This document shows, piece by piece, positions 1-13,899 of a DNA stretch of 17,028 nt (within the stretch, counting starts at the first letter, position 1; each line of letters starts with the position of its first letter). Source of the stretch: a virus (lineage: Duplodnaviria > Heunggongvirae > Uroviricota > Caudoviricetes). The DNA lies in the IMG/VR virus record IMGVR_UViG_3300018493_000089, positions 64,001 to 81,028 of that record. One strand, given 5' to 3'. Position numbers and translations under genes: made by a program. The notes beneath the pieces are model-generated. The model was not told the DNA's origin. It worked only from the letters and a program-made list of their open reading frames with translations, and searched no databases.

Positions 1-430
1 GTACATCAGATTCATCAAAGAGGGGAGGGATATATTTACCCGATTTTTGACTTAAATATTCTGCATCACGAACATTGATCCACGCACAATCTAACCACAT
101 TTCTTTAATAATAGGGGTAGAATTTTTAGGAACAATAATTCTTGCATTGCATTTACCGGTAGCATACAAGGCTGGAACCATACCAATATGATCTTGATGA
201 TTATGTGATAAAATAATAATATCAACACGTTTTGGCTTGATTTTTTGTAGCATCACTTTATTTAAACTATAATTCTCAAGGACAGTTTTACCATCCATGA
301 TTAAACCACATTCAAATAAATATGTTTTTCCATGCTACTCAATTTTTGTACAGCTACCAGTTACACCTTCGCAATTGTTTCCAATGATACTGATTTCGGC
401 TTTTTCATTCTTCTTAGAAATAATAATCAT
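1..430 (-). CDS. MBL-fold metallo-hydrolase (beta-CASP/RNase-like), runs off the left edge; one in-frame TAG
   Basis: MIIISKK...EGVTGSCTKIE*HGKTYLFECG...IILSHNHQDHIGMVP has the MBL HxHxDH motif; TAG at 335-337. The start may be a downstream ATT, because the ATG abuts the RBS. Confidence 0.85.
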
Positions 431-437
431 CCCTTAC

Positions 438-659
438 TTATTTTTGTTTTTGCAGCCACTCCTTGTAATCCTTATCATCTACATTTCTGCTCATAGCATT
501 CCATACTTTAAATGCAAGTGTGTCAATCGCCCAATAAGTTTTTGCTCTGGGGTGTGTTTTGGATACTACAGTAATACCTTTACAACCAGCATTCAGGAAT
601 TCTTTTTCCCAACCCATAGATTCAATATAATCTTTTTCTTGTCTTGTAATTTGTTTCAT
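438..659 (-). CDS. Hypothetical protein, 73 aa
   Basis: RBS AGGGAG upstream, TAA stop, tightly packed between neighbouring genes. Confidence 0.75.
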   Translation of the reverse strand: MKQITRQEKDYIESMGWEKEFLNAGCKGITVVSKTHPRAKTYWAIDTLAFKVWNAMSRNVDDKDYKEWLQKQK

Positions 660-678
660 TAGTTTTCTCTCCCTTTAA

Positions 679-1905
679 TCAATTTAGCACAATTGTATAT
701 TCACAAACTTTACCTTTATCCTCTTCAAATACGACGAAAGAAGCGGTGGCATCAGCAGTTTTTCTGATTTTAATACTAAAATCATCAGACCCAACTATAG
801 ATCCAACACTAATGACACCTTTTCTCACGCCTGTATTTTTAAAGGAGGTATGATGTGTATGTCCTGCAACAATCTAATCGATTTTTACGCCATAAACATG
901 GGCATAATCTTTTAAGGCTGTTTCAAGATCAGACACTTCACCATGAATACCTAAAATGTTATATCCAGCAATATTTGTAAAAATAAAGCCAGTTTTGTTA
1001 TAATATACTTGTAAATTCTCATTCTTTTCATTAATAAGCTCAATACAAGTTCTTACAACTTTCTCAATATTATCATTTAAATGAGCACCTTTTCGCCCAT
1101 CTAATAGTCTACATTCACCATGATTGCCAAATGTATCATAATACTCAACATTGACATAGCGAGATAATTCGTGTAACCAATTACCTATATATCTTCCGAA
1201 AATAATAGCACTATCAATAACACCATAACGCAATGTCCACGCCTGACTATGACGTAAAAATCCATCTAAAGCATCTCCTAAATTAAATACTTTGATAGAA
1301 TTAAAATCTTCTTTTTTTACAATGCTGATAGTTTCAGAAAGCAGTAATTCCATTCGATTATAAAATATTTCCGGATTATATTCGTTTATGATCTGGTCAT
1401 CAAATCCATAAATTTTAAAATCTTTACCAAAATGACAATCTGCGAAGTTTAATAATCCGAATTTTTTTGATGTTGTAATATCACGCTTTTCAATTTTAAT
1501 AGGGTGGGGGAGACATTCTTTGATTGAATTAATAACTTTTTCCTCAAAAGCTTCTTCTCTTGCTTGTTCTCTAAGCCACTCATTATATTCACGTTTTTCG
1601 TCTTGTAATTTAACACGCTCAATTCTAATAGCACGTTCTTTTTCATTTAATTTTCTAATAAGCTCATCATTATCAATTCCATTTTTAATCTGGTTTTGAT
1701 AATATTGCATGACATTATAACCGCTAAATGATGTGACATTCGCTGCTTTTCTTAGGCTGTCTGGGTGACAATCTAAACCAAGTAAATCAACAATGTCGCT
1801 CCATTCAAGATCTGCAGGATTCTGTTCAACCTTTAATGTAATAAGGCGCAAACCATATTCCATAAAACTTTCATTTTCCTTTTGAATCTAATTATTAATA
1901 TCCAT
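679..1905 (-). CDS. Calcineurin-like metallophosphoesterase with N-terminal coiled coil, 408 aa with TAG read-through
   Basis: Motifs ADCHFG, LGDALDG, GNHGE and IHGE; the last motif (ID*IVAGHTHH) is reached only through TAG 874-876. A second TAG at 1888-1890 follows ATG 1905 (RBS GAAGGGA). TGA stop at 679-681. Confidence 0.88.
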
Positions 1906-1920
1906 TCATTCCCTTCACAT

Positions 1921-1947
1921 AAAAATAGCATGGCTAATTGCCATGCT
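1921..1947 (-). terminator. Rho-independent terminator
   Basis: AGCATGGC-AATTA-GCCATGCT hairpin followed by a T-run on the minus strand. Confidence 0.7.
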
Positions 1948-1950
1948 TGA

Positions 1951-2097
1951 TTATTCTTCATATCTTTTGTTTTTATGTTTCTCTTTTCTTTTATAGGAGC
2001 CTTTTCCTTTTTTGTTTTTTACAACAAAACCTCGTTTACGATAAGTTAAATATTCCTGCAATTCATCCTTATCCATTTTAAACATTCGTCTATCCAC
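1951..2097 (-). CDS. arfA: ArfA-like alternative ribosome-rescue factor, 48 aa
   Basis: GTG start with RBS AGGAG; MDRRMFKMDKDELQEYLTYRKRGFVVKNKKGKGSYKRKEKHKNKRYEE contains the ArfA KKGKGSYxRKxKH motif. Confidence 0.75.
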   Translation of the reverse strand: MDRRMFKMDKDELQEYLTYRKRGFVVKNKKGKGSYKRKEKHKNKRYEE

Positions 2098-2123
2098 TTA
2101 AATCACTCCTTATAAATTAAAAA

Positions 2124-2205
2124 TGCGGATGACAGGAATCGAACCTGCACGAGTTTACTCGCCAGAGCCTAAATCTGGTGCGTCTTCCAGTTCCGCCACA
2201 TCCGC
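2124..2205 (-). tRNA. tRNA-Leu(UAG)
   Basis: Cloverleaf; CCAGA-TT-TAG-GC-TCTGG, long variable arm, GGTTCGATTCC. Confidence 0.93.
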
Positions 2206-2210
2206 ATAAA

Positions 2211-2282
2211 AGCACAAGAGGGGAATCGAACCCCCATATTCAGCTTGGAAGGCTGACATCATAGCCTTTAGATCACTTATGC
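2211..2282 (-). tRNA. tRNA-Gly(UCC)
   Basis: TCAGC-CT-TCC-AA-GCTGA, GGTTCGATTCC, U73. Confidence 0.92.
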
Positions 2283-2285
2283 ACA

Positions 2286-2371
2286 CAGTAATTAATCAAG
2301 AGAAAGGTAAGACTGACGGAATATGTATGACCTTTCATTATCTGGACGATAATCTCTTAATTTAATTACTG
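2286..2371 (-). ncRNA. Unassigned structured small RNA
   Basis: Closing stem CAGTAATTAA/TTAATTACTG with inner helices AAGAGA/TCTCTT, AAAGGT/ACCTTT and ATTATC/GATAAT. Confidence 0.45.
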
Positions 2372-2374
2372 AAA

Positions 2375-2460
2375 CGCCATAGGTAGGATTTGAACCTACG
2401 CACGATTTCTCGCCTAACTCCTTAGCAGGGAGCCCTCTTCAGCCTCTTGAGTACTACGGC
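2375..2460 (-). tRNA. tRNA-Ser(GCU)
   Basis: Anticodon loop CT-GCT-AA, long variable arm, G73. Confidence 0.92.
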
Positions 2461-2466
2461 ATAGAA

Positions 2467-2540
2467 TTGGGGTAGAGGGAATCGAACCCTCGACCACTGG
2501 CTTATAAGGCCAGCCCTCTAACCTACTGAGGTACACCCCG
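2467..2540 (-). tRNA. tRNA with UAU anticodon (nominally Ile) and an initiator-like C1xA72 mismatch
   Basis: CTGGC-CT-TAT-AA-GCCAG; acceptor CGGGGTG/TACCCCA-A. Confidence 0.85.
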
Positions 2541-2760
2541 ATAACAAATAACACTTTTAGATGTGTGATGGCGTTCCACCCAGTCGTTACAGTTTACGAC
2601 ACTGCACCGACAACGGTTATGGATACGCCTCACTGATCCAAATACCTCAAATTTGAAGTGTGTGTACACATGGTATCACAAGCCCTGCGTCCAGCAGAAA
2701 TTTCTGTCTTCACAATTAAATAGCGATGCATTTCAACTATAAAGATACAAGCAATACCAA

Positions 2761-3302
2761 AGCTGATAATAGGACTTGAACCTAAATAACGATTTTTATA
2801 ATACATTAGATGTTAGCATTATCAATAAGATCCAACTGTTTTGCTAATATATAATCTTTTGCAAAAGACACACCTTTTGTTTGCCCGTTCTTTGGTGAAG
2901 AAAATCTTAAAGTTTTTGATGATGCACATTCAAATACTGGGATCAAATAGCATTCACCATCATAAAATGTTGCAAAATAATCTGTATCATCCGATGTATA
3001 ATAAACATTTTTAACACTCGAACAATTAACATGTGTGCTTCTACAAGAAATAATAATAGCATTATCGCCATCTAATAATGCAGCAGATTTAACTTGAACA
3101 CGAAATATTTTTCTGCCTGTATCAACAATCATGTCCTATTTTGCATTATCACCAAAAGGAATGCTAACCTGACAACCATGTTGATAAAATGCTGTGATGC
3201 ATTGTAACTCTGTAATATTCCCTTTTTGTTTAGTAGTTAAATCCATATATTCACCTATTCTATTATAAAAATCATGCGCTCTGCCAATTGAGCTATACCA
3301 GC
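2761..3302 (-). other. Split tRNA-like element with the anticodon loop replaced by a nuclease ORF
   Basis: 5' half GCTGGTA-TA-GCTC-AATTGGCA-GAGC-G-CATGA from 3302; 3' half AGG-TTCAAGT-CCT...TATCAGC-T to 2761; 14-bp stem 3261-3274/2790-2803 closes around the ORF. Confidence 0.75.
2806..3246 (-). CDS. PD-(D/E)XK homing-type endonuclease (group I intron-associated PDDEXK_5-like), 146 aa, one TAG
   Basis: MDLTTKQKGNITE...VSIPFGDNAK*DMIVD...RVQVKS; TAG 3136-3138 occupies the Tyr of the family's YD motif. Confidence 0.85.
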
Positions 3303-3310
3303 ATGATAAA

Positions 3311-3392
3311 TGAGTGATACTTGATTCGAACAAGTTCAGCAATTGCAACAGATTTACAGTCTGCCCCGGCTCTCCAACTCCGGCGATCACCC
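3311..3392 (-). tRNA. tRNA-Tyr(GUA)
   Basis: GCAGA-CT-GTA-AA-TCTGT, variable arm, G1-C72, A73. Confidence 0.92.
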
Positions 3393-3524
3393 ATATTGGT
3401 GGCATGGCTGAGTTTTTTTAGGGTTTGCTCAAGCGTTGCCAACTGTTCATCCCTACGAGCCTAAAGCCCAATTCACGAGGCTAAACCTCCGAAATACAAA
3501 CTATCTGTGTTATTACCACAGTGA

Positions 3525-3598
3525 TTGCAGCGACAAGATTCGAACTTGTGATTTCAGAGTTATGAGCCCTGACGGATAGACCACTTCCATACGCTGCG
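3525..3598 (-). tRNA. tRNA-fMet(CAU), initiator type
   Basis: CAT anticodon, C1xA72 mismatch, anticodon stem CAGGG/CTCTG. Confidence 0.88.
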
Positions 3599-3609
3599 AT
3601 ATTAAAAAA

Positions 3610-3681
3610 CAGGAGGGCAGTGACTCGAACACTGAACTTCAGTTTTGGAGACTGGTGTTTTACCAGTTAAACTAACCTCCT
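3610..3681 (-). tRNA. tRNA-Trp(CCA)
   Basis: Loop CT-CCA-AA, A1-U72, G73. Confidence 0.9.
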
Positions 3682-3687
3682 AAAAAA

Positions 3688-3760
3688 TTGCAGAGAGGGG
3701 AGTCGAACCCCTAACCTCTGGATTATGAGTCCAGGAATCTTCCATTGATAGTACTCTGCG
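3688..3760 (-). tRNA. Second tRNA-Met(CAU), initiator-like
   Basis: CTGGA-CT-CAT-AA-TCCAG; acceptor CGCAGAG/CTCTGCA-A with C1xA72. Confidence 0.85.
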
Positions 3761-3772
3761 TTAATAATATAG

Positions 3773-3856
3773 TGCAGGAGAGGAGATTCGAACTCCCAAT
3801 CCCTCACGGGCGGCGGATTTTAAGTCCGCATCGTATACCAGTTCCGACACTCCTGC
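3773..3856 (-). tRNA. tRNA-Leu(UAA)
   Basis: GCGGA-CT-TAA-AA-TCCGC, long variable arm, A73. Confidence 0.93.
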
Positions 3857-3862
3857 ACATTT

Positions 3863-4042
3863 ATATCCAAGAATAACTTAATGAGATGAAAAATATTGGA
3901 ACATTACGAAAGGATTAACTGAATATCCTTCAACCAATGTTTCTGTGTCTTTAAATGTGTAATCTGTATAAAACTTTTATATCATCATAGTTTTCTATAA
4001 TTAAATCCTCAAAGAAGTAACTCATTAAACTGCATTGGATAT
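3863..4042 (-). ncRNA. Y-RNA-like gene 1 (AU-rich insert of about 120 nt, no tRNA domain)
   Basis: Terminal stem ATCCAA/TTGGAT; ATGCAGT-TTAATGAG-TTACTTC...CTCATTAA-GTTATTC. Confidence 0.7.
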
Positions 4043-4070
4043 AATAAGAGAATATTATGACCTATTTTAT

Positions 4071-4210
4071 AATTCTGAGTATAACTGAAATAGAAATTTT
4101 TAGCGCTCTCCCAATTGAGCTACGGTGCACAACTTAGTACACCGACAGGACTCGAACCCGCAACCTCTCGATTAACCAGTCGAAGTAACTATTTCAACTG
4201 CATCAGAATT
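4071..4210 (-). ncRNA. Y-RNA-like gene 2, YrlA type (circularly permuted tRNA domain)
   Basis: GATGCAGT..AGTTACTTC, then T arm GCGGGTTCGAGTCCTGT, closed acceptor CGGTGTAC/GTGCACCG and D arm GCTCAATTGGGAGAGC. Confidence 0.85.
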
Positions 4211-4224
4211 TTATTGCATTTTTA

Positions 4225-4353
4225 AGCCGAGAATGTCGTGAATAGTGAAAAAAGTCTATCGCTCTACCAATTGAGCTACCATATTAACCGCAATATAGAA
4301 TAGATTTGAACTATTAACACATAGATGAAGTAACTATTCACACTGCATCAGCT
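4225..4353 (-). ncRNA. Y-RNA-like gene 3, YrlA type
   Basis: Same scaffold; T arm AATAG-TTCAAAT-CTATT precedes D arm GCTCAATTGGTAGAGC. Confidence 0.82.
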
Positions 4354-4368
4354 ATATTTACTTATTAA

Positions 4369-4452
4369 ATCAGAGAATAACTTATATGGTGTTAGCGTTT
4401 TCTGAAGCAAATATGGAGTATTTACGAAGTAACCATATAAACTGCATCTGAT
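4369..4452 (-). ncRNA. Y-RNA-like gene 4 (minimal)
   Basis: ATCAGATGCAGT-TTATATGG-TTACTTC...CCATATAA-GTTATTCTCTGAT with a short hairpin insert. Confidence 0.72.
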
Positions 4453-4469
4453 ATATATTTTTTATTAAA

Positions 4470-4603
4470 AGCATCTCTGAGAAGAGGTGACGAGTGCTAT
4501 TGAGTTGGAAGCTGGATTCGAACCAGCGTTTTCACCGTAAAAGGGTAATGTCTTATCCTCTTGACTATTCCGAAGTAACCCGTCTAACTGCATCAGAGAT
4601 GCT
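4470..4603 (-). ncRNA. Y-RNA-like gene 5 carrying a non-permuted tRNA-Lys(UUU)-like domain
   Basis: 11-bp terminal stem AGCATCTCTGA; insert has a D arm, TTACC-CTTTTAC-GGTGA and GCTGG-TTCGAAT-CCAGC in normal order. Confidence 0.8.
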
Positions 4604-4609
4604 ATTCAA

Positions 4610-6241
4610 TTACTGTTTATTTTTGTTTTCAATTTCATTCCACAGTTCAATCATTCTGGAAGCAAAAATACTTTCTTTGCCTGTCCAACCAGTCATGATA
4701 TTTGTTCTATATGCATATTCTGGAATCAGAATGTTGTTATATCCTGCAGTCTGAATAGAGAATACATTTACTTTTGGATTAACCGCCTTACGGTAATCCT
4801 GGATTAGCTTAAATACATTTACATGATTATAAGCGCATCCATATTTTTCATGATACTCAGAAACATCTTTGCCTGTACCATACAAGCCGCCATGACCAGC
4901 CTGTTGATCGGAATAAATAAAAATGTTATCCCAGTGTTCTTTATTAGCAATTGCATCTCTAAAGAACTTCCAAATGCCACCTTCTGTTGAGCCGCCAACA
5001 TCACTATATCTGCTTTTTGTAATATCTTCAGACTGCTTCAGAATGCCATGTCTTTTGCTGATAGGATATGTTTTTAATCTGTCACCAAATTTACCAACAT
5101 AACCCTCTTCGGAACAAGCTGCAGTAATCACAGAGGAGAGATTATCAATTTCTGCAATACATACACTGCCATATTCTGAAGTAATTGTACCCCATGCAGA
5201 ACCAGAGTTATCAGACAGGCACATTGTTTTGCCTTTCAGCTTTGGCATATTCTGAATAGAAATATCCATACATTCTTCCAAAGCATCGATAATCTGAGGT
5301 TTATGATGGCATTTGCTACCAGATACCGCTTTCAGTGCAGAGTAATATCTGAAAGGGAATTGTTTGCCTTTCAGTACACCAGAAGTTAGTTTTGTAAGGT
5401 ATTCTTTGCAGAATTCTGCATCGTCAACTTCTGTAAATACGCCACGCAGATTTCTTAACAAAGCCATATGACCCATATTCGTTGTTCTGAAAATTTCTTT
5501 CCAGCCCATACCAGAGGATCTTAGTGTTTCCCATGTTTTCTGGTCATCATCAACTTTCAGCGTATCATGCATCAGTTTATCCAGAGTAGGGGAGTTTGCG
5601 TGAGTGATACGAACTGCATTAATCATGCCGATTTCGCTATTTTTATATTTGTTTACCTCGTATTCTCTCAGATTGCTAAGTTTAGAAGCAATAGAACGCT
5701 TCAGAATACTAGGGATATTATTTTTCTGACCTTTATTCAAGAACATATAATAAGCCAGCTGAGTCATTGGCTCATCAGCTCGTCTCATAACCTGTTCATT
5801 GATTTTATTGAACATGCCATTGTATTCTGCGGAGAACACTTTTCTTTTAGGGTGAATGGCAGCACGAACCATGATAATCTGTGGATTCAGTCTCATGTTG
5901 TACTCATTTCTTAACTCAACGGCAAGATTCAGAGTACCCATAAAGTCGTAGTCCAAAGCGTTATCTACACATTCTTCCATAATCTGAGTGGTTGTTTTAC
6001 CATCAGAAAATTTCAGAACCAGGCTGTCTCGCACAATACGATCCAGATAAGATTTACCATCTCTAACTGCTGGTCTATAATAAGACGCTTCGCCAAAAAT
6101 GGAAGATGCCATTACCATTTTCAGTGTATCAAGAGGATTGATAACATAGCTATCTCCACCCATGAAGTTTGTCACTGTTTCATCTCTACGAAGCTTTGCT
6201 TCTTCGTGCATGAACTTTACACTTTTACTCATTTTGCTCAT
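4610..6241 (-). CDS. Ro60/Rsr-like TROVE-domain RNA-binding protein with C-terminal vWA domain, 543 aa
   Basis: NFMGGDSY, TWETLRS, MGHMALLRNLR, QFPFRYYSA, MIDAS-like DNSGS and YSDQQ; RBS AAAGGAGG before ATG 6241. Confidence 0.92.
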   Translation of the reverse strand: MSKMSKSVKFMHEEAKLRRDETVTNFMGGDSYVINPLDTLKMVMASSIFGEASYYRPAVRDGKSYLDRIVRDSLVLKFSDGKTTTQIMEECVDNALDYDFMGTLNLAVELRNEYNMRLNPQIIMVRAAIHPKRKVFSAEYNGMFNKINEQVMRRADEPMTQLAYYMFLNKGQKNNIPSILKRSIASKLSNLREYEVNKYKNSEIGMINAVRITHANSPTLDKLMHDTLKVDDDQKTWETLRSSGMGWKEIFRTTNMGHMALLRNLRGVFTEVDDAEFCKEYLTKLTSGVLKGKQFPFRYYSALKAVSGSKCHHKPQIIDALEECMDISIQNMPKLKGKTMCLSDNSGSAWGTITSEYGSVCIAEIDNLSSVITAACSEEGYVGKFGDRLKTYPISKRHGILKQSEDITKSRYSDVGGSTEGGIWKFFRDAIANKEHWDNIFIYSDQQAGHGGLYGTGKDVSEYHEKYGCAYNHVNVFKLIQDYRKAVNPKVNVFSIQTAGYNNILIPEYAYRTNIMTGWTGKESIFASRMIELWNEIENKNKQ

Positions 6242-6282
6242 AATTAAGCCTCCTTTTAATCCGGTGACTCTGCTTATGCAAA

Positions 6283-6371
6283 GTCGAGAATGCTTGCTAA
6301 GGCGATAAACATGGCCAGAATATGATATTAAAAGTATCATCCTAAGAAGTAGCCCTAGCATCTGCATCGAC
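6283..6371 (-). ncRNA. Y-RNA-like gene 6 (upstream of TROVE)
   Basis: GTCGATGCAGA-TGCTAGGG-CTACTTC...CCTTAGCA-AGCATTCTCGAC; insert hairpin ATGATA-CTTTTAA-TATCAT. Confidence 0.75.
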
Positions 6372-6380
6372 AATATATAG

Positions 6381-6470
6381 CGGAGCGAGTGAGGTTCGAA
6401 CTCACACACGACATCCCTGCCGCCTAATGGTTTTCAAGACCATCCTCTTAGCCAATTTGAGTATCGCTCC
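6381..6470 (-). tRNA. tRNA-Ser(UGA)
   Basis: ATGGT-CT-TGA-AA-ACCAT, long variable arm, G73. Confidence 0.93.
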
Positions 6471-7173
6471 AAAATAATTCGTCAAAATTTATTTTTAATT
6501 TTTGTTCATCTGGGATGTCTCTCCAATATCTCCATAAAAACCCAAATGCTGTTGTGTTTTCACCTCTACGATTACTTAATGAATCGCATATAGCACCACT
6601 ATTTGGATTTTTATTAAATCGTCTATTTGCCTCAGATTTACTCTTATAAATAGAGATAATTGAATATGTAAAAGGATCTATTTGACATAAAAAACCACCA
6701 TTTTCTTTAATTAATAAATCTCTACATTCGTCACATGTTAGCCATTTTATATTATGTTTAGCTAAAATTTTTTTGACTGATTTTGGATCTATATTAAAAT
6801 AACTAGCAGTCCTACCTGCAACATATTTTGCAATAGAGCAATGATATTCAATAATTTCATTATCTGTAAATTGAATATATGGTTTTCCATCACCACCAAT
6901 TGTCGCATTATACCCATTAGATCCATATGTGTTTAGCTATTGAATCCAATATTTTTCTCTTGATTCAATATCATCTGTTTCCTCGATTATTTCAAATGAA
7001 AAATTGTCTATGCCATATTTGTTCATTGCGCTCTACAAAGGACGCTTTTCGCATCTTCTTGTTTTGCTATCTTTTATATGTTCTTTAAAACGGTCATTTG
7101 GATTTAAATGATTTGTTTTGCCAACATATTGTTTTCCATTAATTTTATTAGTGATAACATAAATCTAACCCAA
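6448..7173 (-). CDS. Free-standing GIY-YIG homing endonuclease A with NUMOD1-like C terminus, 241 aa, three TAGs
   Basis: TTG start, RBS GGAGG; MG*IYVITNKINGKQYVGKT...KRPL*SAMNKYG...REKYWIQ*LNTYGSNGYNATIGGDG; TAGs at 7165, 7033 and 6937. Confidence 0.88.
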
Positions 7174-7242
7174 ATTAACGCCTCCAGAAAATACATTATA
7201 ATCCCCATTTTGTTATAGACCTAATGGGCAAGCTGTCTGAAG

Positions 7243-7316
7243 CGGGCAATATGGGATTCGAACCCATGACCTTTCGGTTAACAGCCGAATGCTCTAACCA
7301 ACTGAGCTAATAACCC
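7243..7316 (-). tRNA. tRNA-Asn(GUU)
   Basis: TTCGG-CT-GTT-AA-CCGAA, GGTTCGAATCC, G73. Confidence 0.93.
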
Positions 7317-7349
7317 GATAATATGATAAAACTATAAATTTTATCATAA

Positions 7350-8000
7350 TTATTTTTTTAAATAAGACCATTTATATCCCTAAGCGTGTTTATTTTTTCC
7401 TCTCAAAACTTCATATATTGCCGAAGAAGTTCTGCTTTTGCCAAATGCTTCATTGGCGTCTGCGACACTGTTAAACTGCGCAATAATTTCATTACTTTTA
7501 CAATCAATCTGACAAACAATATTTCCACGCTCAGAGATTAATACCTGATTAACTTCATCAGAATTTAAATGATGAATATTATATTTATCTAAAATAGTAT
7601 TAACGGTTTTGGGATCAAGGTGAAAATAACGAGCAGTTCTCGCAGATATATATTTTGCTTCTGTACAATGCTAAATAATTATATCTTGATCACTATAAGG
7701 CACATAAGAACGCCCATCTCCTCCACGGGTAGCATTATACCCATTCGATCCATAAGTACCGAATTTTTGAATATAATACATTTCTCTATCTTCTGGGGAG
7801 TATGTTTCTTCGATTATTTCAAAAACAAAATTCTCAACACCATATTTATTAAATGCTCTATAAAGAGGGCGGTTTTTGCAACGATCTTTTTTACTATCTT
7901 TTATATGCTGATAAAATCTCTCAATAGGATTTGTTTTTTCTGTTTTTCCTATCTATTTTTTACCATTAATTAAATTTGTAATAGAATATATGTAAGCCAA
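7350..8000 (-). CDS. Free-standing GIY-YIG homing endonuclease B, paralogue of A, 216 aa, three TAGs
   Basis: TTG start, RBS AAGGTGG; MAYIYSITNLINGKK*IGKT...RPLYRAFNKYG...GYNATRGGDG...KHA*GYKWSY; TAGs at 7953, 7671 and 7380. Confidence 0.88.
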
Positions 8001-8025
8001 ATTAAAACCACCTTAGATTTAAAAA

Positions 8026-8109
8026 TGGGTTATGAAGGTACTGCCCCTCCCTGGCTACAATAGCAATTGATTTAGAGTCAACCCGGCCTCTTTATCCGTC
8101 TAATAACCC
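8026..8109 (-). tRNA. Amber-decoding tRNA (anticodon CUA), Tyr-type body
   Basis: Acceptor GGGTTAT/ATAACCC with A73; GTTGA-CT-CTA-AA-TCAAT (anticodon 8073-8075); long variable arm; atypical T loop GGCAGTA. Confidence 0.85.
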
Positions 8110-8118
8110 GAAAATTAG

Positions 8119-8189
8119 CTACCCTGCGTGGATTCGAACCACGACCGTAAGAATCAAAATCTCATGTGCTACCATTACACCACAAGGCA
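8119..8189 (-). tRNA. tRNA-Gln(UUG)
   Basis: TGAGA-TT-TTG-AT-TCTTA, U1-A72, G73. Confidence 0.9.
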
Positions 8190-8196
8190 TCAATAT

Positions 8197-8275
8197 ACAG
8201 CAGGGGCTGGAGATACATGATTTGAAATGAAACAACATAAATGTGTAATATTTGGAAGGATGGTGCCCCTGCTGT
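8197..8275 (-). ncRNA. Hairpin small RNA with a large pyrimidine-rich loop
   Basis: Perfect 11-bp stem ACAGCAGGGGC/GCCCCTGCTGT enclosing 57 nt. Confidence 0.45.
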
Positions 8276-8280
8276 GTCAA

Positions 8281-8625
8281 TTATTCAATTTTATCTTTTC
8301 TTTCTTTATTTACACGAATTTCATAGTGATCTGTGCAAATAGGATAGATTTTTAACTTATCTGGAACAGTTCTTTCTTCGCCAAACAGAGCAATATATTC
8401 TGTATAACCATCTCTTGGTTTAAGTTCAATATTAATACCATCAAGAATTTTAATTGTAGTATTTTTGTCCTTTGGAGAATTTACAATCATTTCGTGTAAT
8501 ACTTCTCTGAAAGCGTCATACATCAAATTAACATCTTTCTGATAAAAATCGCATTTTTTAGCTACTGCTCTTACAATATCTTTCTGACGAATAAAAACCG
8601 TTTCTTTTTCTTGGTTTTCTTTCAT
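8281..8625 (-). CDS. HU/IHF-family DNA-binding protein
   Basis: DIVRAVAKKCDFYQKDV N-terminal helices, IKILDGINIE strand and arm FGEERTVP. Confidence 0.7.
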   Translation of the reverse strand: MKENQEKETVFIRQKDIVRAVAKKCDFYQKDVNLMYDAFREVLHEMIVNSPKDKNTTIKILDGINIELKPRDGYTEYIALFGEERTVPDKLKIYPICTDHYEIRVNKERKDKIE

Positions 8626-8629
8626 TTAA

Positions 8630-9286
8630 TCACTCCTTGAAAATATCCTCTACATTTGTAACAATTTCATCACAAACACCGAGTTCTTTTGCTTCAGACG
8701 CAGAAATAAACCATTCAGAACCAAATTTTTCATCCATCATCTCTTGTGGAATATTAGTTCTTTTCATAATATAAGCTTCCATTTCTTCCATCTGACGCTG
8801 ATACTCCAAGATATGAGCAATAATTTCATCATAAGTTCCTTGAAAATTACCACTGCCTTTATGAATTAAGAAAGTGGCACTAGGCATAGCGTATCTCTTA
8901 TGGCAAGCAAGATACATCATGCATCCTGCACTATATGCCATACCCATATTTACACCAATTACTGGAGTTTTAGATGTTTCAATCAAATCAATCATTGCAT
9001 TATTAACATCTAATGAACCGCCAGGGCTGAAGAACAGTAAATAAATTGGTTTTCTATTTTCAACTGGTAAACCTGTATCATCTTTATTCCACATCATGAT
9101 ATATTTACCAAATTCAAGAAAGCCATCTGTTACATCCATATCCAGCCAGAGAATACGATTCTCTAGGTTTTTATACTATGTAAGTAATTCTGGAGAGGGG
9201 AGCTGTAAATTCTCAACATATTTAGGAATTAAAGCTTGAATCAGCTGTTCCTCTGTCATAATTTGTTTTTGATTATTATTATCCAT
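8630..9286 (-). CDS. ClpP-like peptidase, 218 aa, one TAG
   Basis: FSPGGS, AYSAG and LIHKGS; RBS AAGGAG before ATG 9286; LPSPELLT*YKNLENRILWLD with TAG 9176-9178. Confidence 0.88.
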
Positions 9287-9362
9287 AGTTCTCCTTTTTG
9301 CTGACAATATTTTTTAGTTTAGAGTTGTTTAAAAAAATATCGCTCAACTAACTTACAAACTT

Positions 9363-9391
9363 ATTATATCATAGATCGTTTAGATTGTCAA
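9363..9391 (-). promoter_or_regulatory. Consensus sigmaA promoter driving clpP-HU-tRNA island
   Basis: TTGACA-17 nt-TATAAT with extended -10 TG. Confidence 0.85.
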
Positions 9392-9444
9392 CAGTATTTT
9401 TTAATTTAAACAATATTTTTTTATTTAAAATTTTGGTAGATAGA

Positions 9445-9464
9445 AGCAGGGGAGTACCCCTGCT
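9445..9464. terminator. Hairpin, possible terminator after the RNAP operon
   Basis: AGCAGGGG-AGTA-CCCCTGCT; weak U-tract. Confidence 0.45.
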
Positions 9465-9534
9465 ATATTTCTTATCCTACCATATTAGAAAAATGAAAAA
9501 CGATTTCCTAAAACACACGGAATCTACATATGTT

Positions 9535-10446
9535 TTATTCAAATTCATCATTTTCTGGTCTGTGGACATTTTTTATACTATCTCGTTGCAAAGCTTTTTG
9601 TTTTGTATAATAATTTTTCCGATAAACAGTATAACAATCACTACATCTCTCGGATCTTGTATCTTTAATGCTTGTCTCAAATAGTTTTCCGCAGTCGATA
9701 CAAACGATATATTTCGTAGTAACAGGCGATAACTTAGAGCATTGTTTACAAATCTTAGAATGAGACGAACCTTTGCTTTTTATTTTTTGTTTTGGAAACT
9801 TTTCATATTTGCCACATACATTACAGAAGAATCCTTTTCCAGATAAAACCATATACTGATTACCAAGATCAACAAGACTGGTGATAGGGTAGTTTTCTCC
9901 ATCAGACATAATTTCAACTTTAATGTTTGTATTACTACATTTAAGTGATAATGAAATTTGTCCAGAATTCTTTAAGTAATGAATTTTAAGCATTTTAGAT
10001 TTTTTATCACCATTCATATTAGCAAGCTTAAATAATTTTACCCAATCCACATTAACCCAGTTTGAGTTCTCTGGTCTGGCAGCATTATACTATTTAGCAA
10101 GACATAGACAAGTGAACATTAATTTTTCAGCTTGATCGTCACATAAAGATTGTATTTCATCAAGCTCTGAATCACTAATATAAATAGTGTCCACCTCTAA
10201 TAATGGCTATTTTTTTGCGTTGTTGATATATTTACAAACAACATCATACCATTCGTCAGAATTATATCCCGAATAGTTTTTCATCATAAATTCATCAATT
10301 TTTTGAAGAATGATTTTCTTTCTATATCCAGAAATATGCCAAAAATATCTGACGAGTAACTGCACTGTGGCTGAAGGCTTCTTGTCAACAATTCCTTGCT
10401 CCAGAATTTTTTCAGCCTATTTTCTTTCATTTAACAATAATTCCAT
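9535..10446 (-). CDS. Hypothetical protein with C-terminal CxxC Zn ribbons, coupled to the RNAP gene, 303 aa, three TAGs
   Basis: TGATG stop/start overlap at 10444-10448; TAGs at 10417, 10207 and 10090; CNVC, CKQC, CIDC and CSDC. Confidence 0.82.
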
Positions 10447-13190
10447 CAAATATCACCTCCCGAAATAACCTTTTCTTTAATTGCAAATCGCTCACCGCAA
10501 TAAACAATATCACCATCGGCATCTTTAGCAGGGTATTTGATTGTCATATTATTTTTTTCAAGCAAATTAGATAGGATAGTGCTACCACATAAATCCCATG
10601 CAAATTGTTTAGACTTGTTATTTGTATAGCAAAGATCAATTACAATATTACATAAGCGTTTTGCATTAGGACAAATTTCATAACATTCTCTAACAAAAAT
10701 ATCTTGAAACATTTGCCTTGCAACTTTTCTGCTTTCTTCATCTATGTTGTCAACTTTAACATCCTGTGCATACTGTTGAACACGCTTACCATATTCAAGG
10801 TATATATTTTTAATTTTCTCAAATTCATCTGCTGTGTATTCAACATCTGATTTTAAAATAGATGCATCAAATTCTGGATATACATAATCAAAATCTGGAT
10901 AATGTTCTACTTTATGACAAATGCGATTTACAACACAGTCAGTATCAGTAACAGGAATGTTATTATGATAATACATTAGGAATATTTCTTCATCTGTGGT
11001 TCTATCATCAGAACTCAATAAATCATTTAATGATTTCCCAAACGATCCCCAACATTTCATATCACAAGCATTAACATATTTATCATAATCACTTTTCAGA
11101 TAATCATAATTCTACATGAAGAAATAGGGTTTCTTACACGCTGCCGTTCTCTGATAGATCATCTTCAACTCTTTTACATCATCTGGATCATCATCATTGA
11201 TACGGTTAACCTTATTGTCATACCAGTGTCTAGGCATGGGTTTTGCAATAATCCCTTTTGCTTTATCAATTTGGTTTTGTTGCTCCAACTGCCCACAAAT
11301 AATACGCTATTGTAGCACTTCATACTCTGGGCTTCCTTCTGGATACATTGCTTGTAAACAAATCTGAGAAGTAATAATGTTTGTAGTTGAACCGATGGCG
11401 TCACCAAAGCTCAACTTATTTGAAGTAATTAAATCTTCCTCAGTTGGAATTTTCTTTTCTGCTTTACGCTGAATACACTGAATTACAGGAAGATTTTTTG
11501 TATTCCGTAATAAAATTTCTGAATTAGTGGTATAAAACATATCGCCATCATGATCACTACCATTTAATGCTTCTGCGGTTGTATCCCAACTGTTTAATAG
11601 CATACATGTGGTAATCTATTTATACCAATAATCTATTTCTGCGTTTGATACAGGCTTCATTTTTCTGATATTGTATTCAGAAGACATTGGTGCTCTGAAG
11701 CAGACAATTTCTTCTACATTTCTATCAGACCAGTACTTATGCTAACATTCACCTTTTTTCAAAAGCCCAGTAACTTCTAACCCAAACATATTTTGTGCCA
11801 ATGAATAAGGATCTCCGCCGGTAACAGCAAAGTTCGCATCAAGTTTAAGTACACCAATTTTTGCCTGTTTGATTTTTTTCTTTACCATGTGGTAGATTTT
11901 GCTTCTGATAAACGGATCGTTAATCAGTCTGCTGTCAACCATCAGCGCTTTTGCGAAATCAAAAAAATCATCAGAGAATACATTTTTATCATTAATGCCA
12001 AATCCACAAAGGAACAGTGCCGACTTTCTCCAATCCATACCCATTACATCACAGATTTCGTCCATAGTAGGTTTGATGAGTGCATCAACTTCTACATCAG
12101 AAAGTTTCTAGTTCTGTAAAAATTGATAATTTGTTTCACGGACGCTATCTAATTCGTAAGGTGTAACTTTAGAAACAGCAAAACTATATCCGTTTTCTAT
12201 GGTATTAATCCAATAATCCTCCCAAGATGAATAATGATCCCATAACTTTAACATTGAAGCAGTCAAAATAACTTCTGCGTCTCTAACATCTCGTTTTGTA
12301 CCCCAAACATCTATGATTTCATATGTTCCTGCAACTTTTTCTGCAAAATCAATAAAATCAAATGTAAAGAGCATTCCTTTAGACCAGGGTAAACCCCTTG
12401 TGTTTACGCCAGAAATATATTTGCCATATTCTCCACCAAGTTCAATATTCCAACGAAAGGATAAGGAAGGGAGCATAAAACCATACCCATCGCTATCAAC
12501 CAAGGATATTTCTTGATTTTTTAAAAAGGAAAGGGTGGGCTCTTCACCTTCGCTATCATCGACCCGAATGATGTCCTCAAAGAATTTTGTTTCGCAATCC
12601 GGCACAACAATAATACCATTTGGATTTGATACAGGAATAGATCCACTACAAACCAACGCTTGGTATGCCTCCAGCTTTGCGGGGACAATAGGAATTTCTT
12701 TGTTTCTGCCATTGTCAATTCTTCGCTTTAACTCTGGGTACAAACGCTCACTGACATAAACAATTGTGGAGTTTTTAATACCACCATTTGTGCCAAGTAA
12801 TCGTTTATACTGAACACCATTAATAGAAAAACCTTTATTGGCTCGATCATAATCAGAATCTCTATCAATAATCAAACACATATAATCTTCTTGAAATTGT
12901 GTTTCCTATAAGGCTTTCTATAGGCGTTTCATGTGTTCTTTATTCTCTTGTGAAGTTTCTTGTCTTCTTAATCTTTTAATTTCGTTTTTTAGCATTTTAG
13001 CTTTTGCATCAGTGTTTACACAGTTCAACTCGTCGATGAACCGTAAAATCTGACTATCAGAAAGAGCGATAACATCTGTTTTGTTCTTTAGTGCTACATC
13101 AAGAGGTAGCTCTAAATCCCATTTTGCCTTTCTAAGACGGCTGCTATGCAGTTTGTAAATCTACTTATGGCAAGCCTTTTGTTTAGCTAT
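10446..13190 (-). CDS. YonO/RdRP-like single-subunit (two-barrel) phage RNA polymerase, about 914 aa, eight TAGs, probable ATA start
   Basis: One frame joins four track fragments; motifs DSDGYG, KGMLF, NYQFLQ, FRAPM, NGSDHDGD and IDKAKG; TAGs at 13161, 12918, 12906, 12108, 11742, 11616, 11307 and 11112; RBS AGAAAGGA. Confidence 0.9.
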
Positions 13191-13249
13191 TACTATTCAT
13201 CCTTTCTACATGTAAACCATATCAGTTTAAAAGTACCCCCATTTTTTAG

Positions 13250-13593
13250 GTTTGGCTGGATAATTTTTGCATTTAATTTTTCAGATGAGGAATTCCTTAA
13301 CTTAAACCAGTTATCTCAAATTCCTTCCAGTCAAACTCAAAATTCTGGGGTAAAACACCCATTCTAGTCAAAAAGTTACACTGAAAATTTTGTTTAGATG
13401 AAAAGTTTTAGGATTGCCGAATCAAATCAGTGTAACTAGCAACAATGTGAATCCTCAATTTACATATGTTATAATGATTTATTACATGCTAACAATATTT
13501 TTTAGTTTGGCTGGATAAAAAAATAAATCAACCCCTCAGATGAGGAATTGGTCATCCTTGAGCTGTTACCCTTAAAATTTAGGGTTTGGCTGG
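13250..13593. repeat. Degenerate direct repeats upstream of the RNAP gene
   Basis: GTTTGGCTGGATAA at 13250 and 13505; TCAGATGAGGAATT at 13281 and 13536 (both offset 255); third GTTTGGCTGG at 13584. Confidence 0.7.
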
Positions 13594-13626
13594 GAGATTT
13601 TCGGCTAAAAAGGGCATTCTGAACAT

Positions 13627-13899
13627 TTAGTTACATTTACGCTGTGCATTTACTGCCAACATCCGTTCAGCTTGCTCTGGCGGAACATCTCTAATCTTAC
13701 TTCTGATGGTGATTAATCTTTTGGGAAACTTATAGGTTTTGCCATAAGCATCCTCTGAGTAAATACTAAATAGGGAAGGGTTGGCTTCGACCAGTTTCTC
13801 CATTTTAGTGATCCATGTAGTATCAGAACAGTATAGCTATGCATATTCGTCTGTCCGCATTGCGGTGATATGCATTTCTTGTTCATCTTTTTGAACCAT
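13627..13899 (-). CDS. Hypothetical protein, 90 aa, one TAG
   Basis: RBS GAGGTG; MVQKDEQEMHITAMRTDEYA*LYCSDTTWITKMEKL...KTYKFPKRLITIRS; TAG 13837-13839; TAA stop. Confidence 0.8.

Follow-up and report, generated by a model that had tools for sequence, protein, structure and literature searches.

A phage genome in which TAG very probably specifies tyrosine, with a CUA tRNA as its likely decoder

What does TAG mean in a phage whose genes run through it? The question is raised by the final 17 kb of IMGVR_UViG_3300018493_000089, a linear 81,028-bp IMG/VR virus record of the Caudoviricetes (G000 below), which is 63% complete and whose sequence words matched sequencing runs from animal faeces or gut. 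No RNA run was listed among the matching data sets, which has no bearing on expression. The window, by which we mean the whole 17,028-nt stretch analysed here (positions 64,001–81,028 of that record), carries 23 in-frame TAGs in nine minus-strand genes, and a preliminary description made from its letters alone had read them as tyrosine, in a code distinct from TAG to glutamine. Comparison of the whole contig with its relatives backs that proposal through homologue columns, a two-way exchange between TAG and TAT or TAC in a related phage (G001), and a tyrosine-like CUA tRNA in the window, which that description had not noticed. We put at roughly 90% the probability that this is a real code in which TAG is tyrosine, very probably decoded by a Tyr-type suppressor tRNA of the phage itself. 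Polymerase relatives in Enterocloster phage PMBT24 and SPbeta-like phages suggest a host among the Clostridia.

The residue at in-frame TAGs

Our recount gave exactly 23 TAGs, a total that depends on starting an RNA polymerase gene from the ATA codon at 13190 and so counting one more TAG, its codon 10. As had also been stated, none of the 12 listed window genes has an internal TAA or TGA, and the true stops are TAA or TGA: of the nine genes with TAGs, eight close in this way inside the window, and the ninth (2-430) ends in TAA beyond it, in the contig. Calling genes with TAG read-through across the 81-kb contig gave 70 with 90 amino acids or more, which contain 65 TAG, 958 TAT and 209 TAC codons; TAG would thus be a rare third tyrosine codon, 5% of the total. 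These genes end in TAA (46) or TGA (24), long genes having been called with these stops by construction, and none of the 70 was shown to terminate at TAG. Open reading frames (ORFs) of at least 150 amino acids cover 65% of the contig, rising to 84% with TAG read-through (68% with TGA and 78% with TAA read-through), and those of at least 100 amino acids go from 75% to 89%. Five TAGs lie within the last ten codons of their genes; homologues extend beyond four of these (Y in 61 hits; Y and L in G001; a NUMOD-like motif with G/H/Y columns), and the fifth has no homologue. Among short ORFs led by a ribosome-binding site, eight of nine stop at TAA or TGA, the one ending in TAG being a 36-codon frame within the tRNA array.

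To assign the residue, proteins of G000 were aligned with those fetched loci that yielded hits, 132 in all, its own loci and two G001 duplicates excluded; the residue count omits seven loci with many internal TAGs, and a redundancy-reduced log-odds run drops three more. Homologue columns were available for 42 of the 65 TAG sites, with a tyrosine majority at 20 (48%) and a glutamine majority at 3. Ordinary tyrosine codons were Tyr-majority at the same rate (335/699, 48%), and glutamine codons were Gln-majority at 126 of 491. Summed log-odds at TAG columns were +41.9 for tyrosine, −13.1 for histidine, −13.4 for phenylalanine and −33.7 for glutamine, and control runs on Y, Q, F, W and K codons each returned the correct residue. 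Where TAG columns are well conserved, 14 of 17 are tyrosine. The tabulation of residues opposite TAG that the preliminary description had called for, made here over the whole contig, favours tyrosine at the rate of true tyrosine codons, and the log-odds uphold its distinction from a glutamine code.

The survey of related genomes that it had also suggested turned up G001, a separate record with 72% polymerase and 79% terminase identity that is recoded likewise. At 27 sites a TAG of G000 faces TAT in G001 14 times, TAG 9 times, TAC once, phenylalanine twice and asparagine once; in the other direction, a TAG of G001 faces TAT 13 times, TAG 9 times, TAC twice and other codons twice. TAG never stands opposite glutamine in this comparison, and G001 scored alone gave Y at 15 and Q at 2 of 40 columns. 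The window features to which the gene-level evidence refers are these:

2-430, minus: 5′ part of a metallo-beta-lactamase-fold gene (PF00753); one TAG, codon 32
679-1905, minus: metallophosphoesterase-like gene (PF12850, weak); two TAGs, codons 6 and 344
2806-3246, minus: PD-(D/E)XK endonuclease gene inside a tRNA-Thr (PF11645, E 1.5e-26); one TAG, codon 37
3310-3393, minus: phage tRNA-Tyr(GUA) (ARAGORN), with an acceptor stem resembling that of the CUA tRNA by alignment
6448-7173, minus: GIY-YIG endonuclease paralogue (PF01541, paralogue alignment); three TAGs
7350-8000, minus: GIY-YIG endonuclease (PF01541); three TAGs, one being the Tyr of the YIG motif
8026-8109, minus: CUA-anticodon tRNA with a tRNA-Tyr-like body; anticodon at 8073-8075
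8118-8189, minus: tRNA-Gln(UUG), directly upstream of the CUA tRNA (ARAGORN, Rfam)
8630-9286, minus: ClpP-like protease gene (PF00574, E 3e-26); one TAG, codon 37
9363-9391, minus: predicted promoter of sigma-70/sigma-A consensus type, TTGACA-17-TATAAT with TG
9535-10449, minus: gene for 304 amino acids downstream of the RNA polymerase gene; three TAGs, codons 11, 81 and 120
10446-13190, minus: YonO-like single-chain RNA polymerase, ATA start; eight TAGs, codons 10, 91, 95, 361, 483, 525, 628 and 693
13627-13899, minus: small gene; one TAG, codon 21, for which no standard-code homologue column was found

In the RNA polymerase, seven of the eight TAG columns are tyrosine in 104–114 of 114 more distant homologues; the codon-10 column is aromatic or leucine (F 47, L 22, gap 21, Y 17 of the 114). 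Codons 81 and 120 of the 304-amino-acid gene are each Y in eight of ten non-redundant homologues, codon 11 being variable. The TAG of the ClpP-like gene is opposite Y in 7 of 10 homologues and is common to G001, codon 16 of the GIY-YIG gene at 7350-8000 is opposite Y in 15 of 15, and at codon 344 of the metallophosphoesterase-like gene Y is the most frequent residue (7 of 19). The earlier argument from the two GIY-YIG paralogues, that TAG faces Y at four of six sites and F and K at the other two, held on realignment.

The CUA tRNA and its promoter

A BLAST search with the CUA tRNA of G001 matched the window at 8022-8109 on the minus strand (70% identity, E 8e-5). Both ARAGORN and Rfam report tRNA-Tyr(GUA) and other sense tRNAs and miss this one. 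It has G1-C72, A73, a long variable arm, an atypical T-loop (GGCAGUA) and a four-nucleotide link before a three-base-pair D stem, and its minimum-free-energy fold is a cloverleaf whose anticodon loop shows CUA. The odd T-loop probably explains the failure of the tRNA finders, and some recoded phages reported as having no suppressor may therefore carry one. Bacterial tRNA-Tyr is identified by G1-C72, A73, U35 and a long variable arm, a set that the CUA tRNA matches in sequence and fold; charging with tyrosine is a prediction. Family members occur in G000, in G001 and in a fragment of a distant phage (G002). When each of the three was compared with 210 distinct phage tRNAs, its best match outside the suppressors was a Tyr(GUA), one of which, on the contig of G001, has the identical four-nucleotide link and T stem. 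The CUA tRNA keeps all four stems, and the D and anticodon stems differ among the three phages in a compensatory way.

A long arm together with a CUA anticodon is not by itself diagnostic of tyrosine. Long-armed CUA tRNAs were collected from 93 viral loci, 80 of which were fetched with flanks; many lacked informative columns, most of the informative ones gave glutamine, and tyrosine was clearly on top only at the G001 locus. As a separate observation, many long-armed CUA tRNAs of phages with TAG as glutamine (L165–L255) have CTGA or TTGA in the loop of the variable-arm hairpin, resembling a second glutamine anticodon. Searching metagenomes with a pattern for the tRNA gave seven hits, one being the G001 sequence and six not tRNA-like; neither this search nor the one of prokaryote genomes described below led to a host or to a third recoded genome.

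The predicted promoter at 9391-9363 on the minus strand matches the consensus at 12 of 12 positions, is the sole exact consensus in the contig, and heads the clpP-like gene, a 114-amino-acid gene, tRNA-Gln and the CUA tRNA; a hairpin at 9445-9464 lies between it and the polymerase operon. G001 has a similar site, TTGACT-17-TATACT, upstream of the same clpP-like gene. Because a promoter scan of the contig found 39 sites against 35 in shuffles, no excess overall, only the perfect match and the conservation of this site count. If the promoter is active, host polymerase could produce the CUA tRNA before TAG-containing proteins are needed.

On these grounds we propose that the phage places TAG at some tyrosine codons genome-wide while ending its genes with TAA or TGA, and that its CUA tRNA likely decodes TAG after charging by the host tyrosyl-tRNA synthetase, by analogy with supF. 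Transcription of the tRNA by host polymerase from the 9391-9363 promoter, as we infer it, would mean that TAG can already be read as tyrosine by the time the TAG-containing phage RNA polymerase is made. The tRNA would likely compete with host release factor 1 (RF1), as these partial genomes yielded neither a release factor nor a synthetase of the phage: searches for tyrosyl-tRNA synthetase (PF00579) and release factor (PF00472) were empty in all five records, each partial, G000 and G001 included. Such competition would explain the rarity of TAG (5%), a preference for A at +4 and its survival mainly in the first 50 codons. As for origin, a phage tRNA-Tyr could have become the suppressor through a single substitution, G34C. 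The E. coli amber suppressor supF (su3) is a tRNA-Tyr(CUA) that arose by one anticodon change, is charged by the host tyrosyl-tRNA synthetase and inserts tyrosine at UAG in competition with RF1. Whereas supF is a laboratory mutant, the CUA tRNA of G000 occurs in nature, is conserved and seems to be needed by dozens of phage genes, and it offers a natural supF-like tRNA whose activity could be checked in a simple reporter.

Placement of TAGs and the question of a gate

TAG makes up 18% of tyrosine codons in codons 1–25, 14% in codons 26–50 and 5% falling to 2% later. With refined starts, which leave 64 TAGs for positional analysis (one of the 65 lies upstream of its refined start), it accounts for 28 of 199 tyrosine codons in the first 50 and 36 of 1032 later (odds ratio 4.5, p 7e-8); the figures for G001 are 23/140 and 32/707 (odds ratio 4.1, p 3e-6). 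Ten other rarer codons gave odds ratios of 0.6–2.0 in the same test, and the 5′ enrichment of TAG in glutamine-type relatives is 1.9 and 1.1. Early TAGs are also the shared ones, as aligned TAGs of G000 are TAG in G001 at 8 of 12 sites in the first 50 codons and at 1 of 12 elsewhere; ATA, the rare codon used for comparison, was kept at 5 of 31. A follows TAG at 33 of 65 sites and TAT or TAC at 378 of 1163 (p 0.004), and A at +4 is a context that favours suppression.

The RNA polymerase gene, the largest in the window, is central to any regulatory reading. Its tblastn hits include annotated YonO (about 26%, E about 1e-17) and Enterocloster phage PMBT24 (41%), and DHDGD in its translation is the catalytic DxDGD motif that marks YonO-like enzymes; PF05183 matches many of its homologues but not the G000 protein itself. 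The ATA start at 13190 follows an AAGGA site, and full-length homologues begin there with MAKQK, most near homologues in databases being called from a later start. N-terminal truncation of the database entries P0002 and P0004–P0006 is unusable as a sign of TAG, since gene callers skip the ATA start. Each of the two polymerase genes, in G000 and in G001, carries an early TAG, at tyrosine positions that neighbour each other; in two database homologues Q stands at the position used by G000. YonO of Bacillus phage SPbeta is described as transcribing late genes (Forrest et al., PMC5467207). SPbeta and PMBT24 carry YonO-like polymerases as well, yet use the standard code, unlike G000, and a late-gene role of the G000 enzyme would hold by analogy only. 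If it does transcribe late genes as YonO does, its TAGs would place late transcription downstream of the suppressor.

Two accounts of the crowding stand at about even odds. Early TAGs may be cheap when termination wins, or they may form a gate, such that without suppressor there would be no RNA polymerase, terminase or capsid. Conservation of TAG position favours the gate; TAG-free genes and homogeneity among genes favour cheap failure. The share of TAG shows no significant difference among genes (p 0.22), and the genes for the portal, the integrase and a tail protein of 1839 amino acids are TAG-free, for the integrase compatibly with chance (p 0.3). TAG-free key genes and the lack of gene-level heterogeneity limit a strict gene-by-gene gate, and the start codons on which positions depend were assigned by a simple ribosome-binding-site rule. 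We regard a regulatory reading of the early TAGs as plausible, at somewhat below even odds. In its fullest form, which we hold no more firmly, this TAG-to-tyrosine code, with TAA and TGA as sole stops, may act as a translational switch: a host promoter would make the suppressor first, and conserved early TAGs, chiefly the one near codon 10 of the RNA polymerase, would hold the lytic programme off until RF1 is outcompeted; the tRNA would move between unrelated phages, and TAG-to-tyrosine would have arisen more than once, with the phages G008–G010 described below as a second candidate lineage. The 5′ crowding and the early polymerase TAG make it testable whether recoding regulates expression or is tolerated drift.

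Alternative readings, known codes and relatives

The case for tyrosine has its weak points. Support is comparative throughout; 23 of the 65 TAG sites have no standard-code column, and 22 of the 42 that do are not Tyr-majority, although true tyrosine codons behave at the same rate. The fold of the CUA tRNA is no better than that of shuffles (z −0.5; the phage's own tRNA-Tyr has z −0.8), its centroid fold lacks the D and anticodon arms, and with its odd T-loop it scores under the ARAGORN and Rfam thresholds. G002 has a tRNA of the same family yet no TAG in 11 genes with 176 tyrosine codons, so the CUA tRNA alone does not imply recoding. Finally, a phage synthetase or release factor may exist, as would be compatible with a contig that is 63% complete.

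The host bacterium might itself read TAG as tyrosine, the phage merely matching its code. The TAGs are spread alike over early genes (plus-strand metabolic arm, 13 of 259 tyrosine codons), replication genes (RNA polymerase and tRNA region, 22/212) and late genes (structural and lysis arm, 30/733), showing neither the standard-code block of dual-coded phages nor the concentration in late structural and lysis genes known from recoded phages. We nevertheless find this explanation very improbable: the phage carries its own CUA tRNA, a pattern search of 185,579 prokaryote genomes for that tRNA gave four hits, none tRNA-like, the phages placed as sisters in the terminase tree keep to the standard code, and the 5′ bias suggests active competition by RF1. 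Equally poor odds attach to near-cognate pairing by tRNA-Tyr(GUA), or editing, with the CUA gene as a relic. The phage does encode tRNA-Tyr(GUA), and the unusual CUA tRNA goes unnoticed by tRNA finders; an RNA polymerase gene with eight TAGs would, however, demand efficient decoding, and the CUA tRNA has kept its four stems, with the compensatory differences described above.

Glutamine, by table 15 (code 15), is how TAG is read in most recoded gut phages and in database translations, and the preprint by Borges et al. (bioRxiv 10.1101/2021.08.26.457843) gives it as the commonest phage reassignment. A tRNA-Gln(UUG) adjoins the CUA tRNA, and glutamine is the top residue at TAG in a member of a distant clade, G006 (21/110), and ties for the top in G007 (11/139). 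Databases, too, place Q at all seven TAGs of the polymerase: entry P0121 is the same protein over its 828 residues except at these. Against this, a Gln majority at 3 of 42 TAG columns falls far below the rate at true glutamine codons, the log-odds are negative, glutamine never faces TAG in G001 and one TAG is the tyrosine of a YIG motif; we give a glutamine code almost no weight. A polymerase relative of 88% identity has Q at 5 of 40 conserved tyrosine columns, which suggests, from its protein sequence, a third recoded member. Automatic switching to table 15 would put glutamine at conserved tyrosines, as seen in the database polymerase copies, corrupting catalogues and proteomic searches.

Error in sequencing or assembly, or nonsense mutation in a decaying prophage, is just as hard to credit: the record is uncultured and partial, and all six Logan assemblies containing all 798 sampled words are flagged as possible sources, but strain X8 (2022 study, about 1% divergent) retains all six polymerase TAGs it covers, of seven compared, the 38 differences listed in three strains are mostly synonymous (32) with none at a TAG, G001 has its own TAGs at other tyrosine sites, internal TAA, TGA and frameshifts are absent, and a cognate tRNA is present. 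With the gain in ORF coverage from 65% to 84%, retention in X8 and the like recoding of the separate record G001 argue that the TAGs are neither chance nor assembly error. We also rejected an error driven by a sequence motif, because no fixed motif flanks the TAGs.

The tyrosine reading, if correct, would add a code to those described. Among phages that code differently from their hosts, Borges et al. list only glutamine for TAG and tryptophan for TGA (bioRxiv 10.1101/2021.08.26.457843), a generalisation that the present phage would break; we found no phage TAG-to-tyrosine code in the literature searched, subscription papers and bioRxiv supplements lying beyond that search. Gut phages with TAG as glutamine, table 15, include crAss-like, Lak, Agate, Garnet and Topaz phages (bioRxiv 10.1101/2021.08.26.457843; Peters et al., bioRxiv 10.1101/2022.01.06.475225; Cook et al., bioRxiv 10.1101/2023.12.19.572299). 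G000 resembles them in its in-frame TAGs, TAA and TGA as sole stops, a phage CUA tRNA, gut habitat, standard-code sister lineages and no phage synthetase found; it differs in the tyrosine residue, the Tyr-type tRNA, the rarity of TAG (5% of tyrosine codons), and TAGs that are not confined to late genes and crowd into the first 50 codons. No NCBI table, in the Biopython copy, has TAG alone as tyrosine. Table 29 (Mesodinium nuclear; TAA and TAG) and tables 14 and 33 (TAA only) likewise read a stop of the TAR box (TAA or TAG) as tyrosine, but in G000 only TAG is so read and TAA is the main stop, ending 46 of 70–71 genes and never internal. Mgcod is reported to have modelled TAA to tyrosine and obtained no support. 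Two further sources tie phage CUA tRNAs to tyrosine: Kienbeck et al. predict a Tyr isotype for 1.1% of 180 phage suppressor tRNAs (PMC10879173), and a phage tRNA, tRNA_CUA-27, inserted tyrosine at UAG with a Prevotella tyrosyl-tRNA synthetase in cell-free extract (bioRxiv 10.1101/2025.10.30.685624); in their accessible parts neither shows a genome with TAGs aligned to tyrosine. tRNA_CUA-27 is short-armed and unrelated in sequence to the CUA tRNA of G000, the first nine bases of which are absent from both supplement files of that preprint.

On a quick terminase tree (35 rows, from 104 less near-duplicates, with row L107 a long-branch artefact), G000 and G001 form a clade (Shimodaira–Hasegawa-like approximate likelihood-ratio support, SH-aLRT, 100) among standard-code phages. 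The Gln-type recoded clade lies far away, so TAG was recoded at least twice in this phage group. Two standard-code relatives seldom stop at TAG (2/117 and 4/108 long ORFs), and the model of Borges et al. expects recoding precursors with little use of TAG stops (bioRxiv 10.1101/2021.08.26.457843); in PMBT24, also standard-code, TAG ends 16 of 78 long ORFs. G002 (L015), with a terminase of 22% identity, has a CUA tRNA (8874-8960, minus) close to that of G001 and no TAG stop in its 11 genes, which suggests transfer of the tRNA and possibly a state before recoding. Terminase and capsid scans of 101 loci gave no Tyr-recoded genome apart from G001.

Suppressor-like loci occur in other genomes too. 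In-frame TAGs are numerous in G006 and G007 (L088 and L091), which belong to the group as distant members and have different CUA tRNAs, glutamine being tied with K and L in G007. G004, the standard-code relative in which TAG ends 4 of 108 long ORFs, has an atypical tRNA called as CUA (L038, 6449-6525, minus). G008, G009 and G010 (L166, L178 and L200) represent an unrelated small phage of 54% G+C, with a long-armed CUA tRNA just upstream of the terminase gene and single early TAGs in the terminase (codon 7), portal (codon 47) and other late genes; six homologues have F, F, F, F, Y and V opposite the portal TAG. With one informative column, these phages are a candidate second TAG-to-tyrosine lineage with gate-like placement.

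The tRNA array of the window also holds mobile inserts. At 2766-3302 (minus), tRNA-Thr is interrupted at its anticodon by the PD-(D/E)XK endonuclease gene. An inverted repeat of 13 bp borders that gene on both sides and lengthens the anticodon stem. In run X8, one contig fuses 2784 to 3269 with the UGU anticodon loop intact, so the insertion is optional. The GIY-YIG gene that separates tRNA-Asn from tRNA-Ser (6401-7201) is missing from X8 and is therefore a mobile insert, although it has three TAGs among its 16 tyrosine codons. At 4010-6241 (minus), a TROVE (Ro60-like) gene (PF05731) precedes a GATGCAG..GTTACTTC motif in five copies and a pair of YrlA-like Y RNAs at 4066-4192 and 4236-4340 (E 2e-5 and 2e-4, under the gathering score). 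Judged by these matches, the tRNA array contains a phage Ro60/Y-RNA module.

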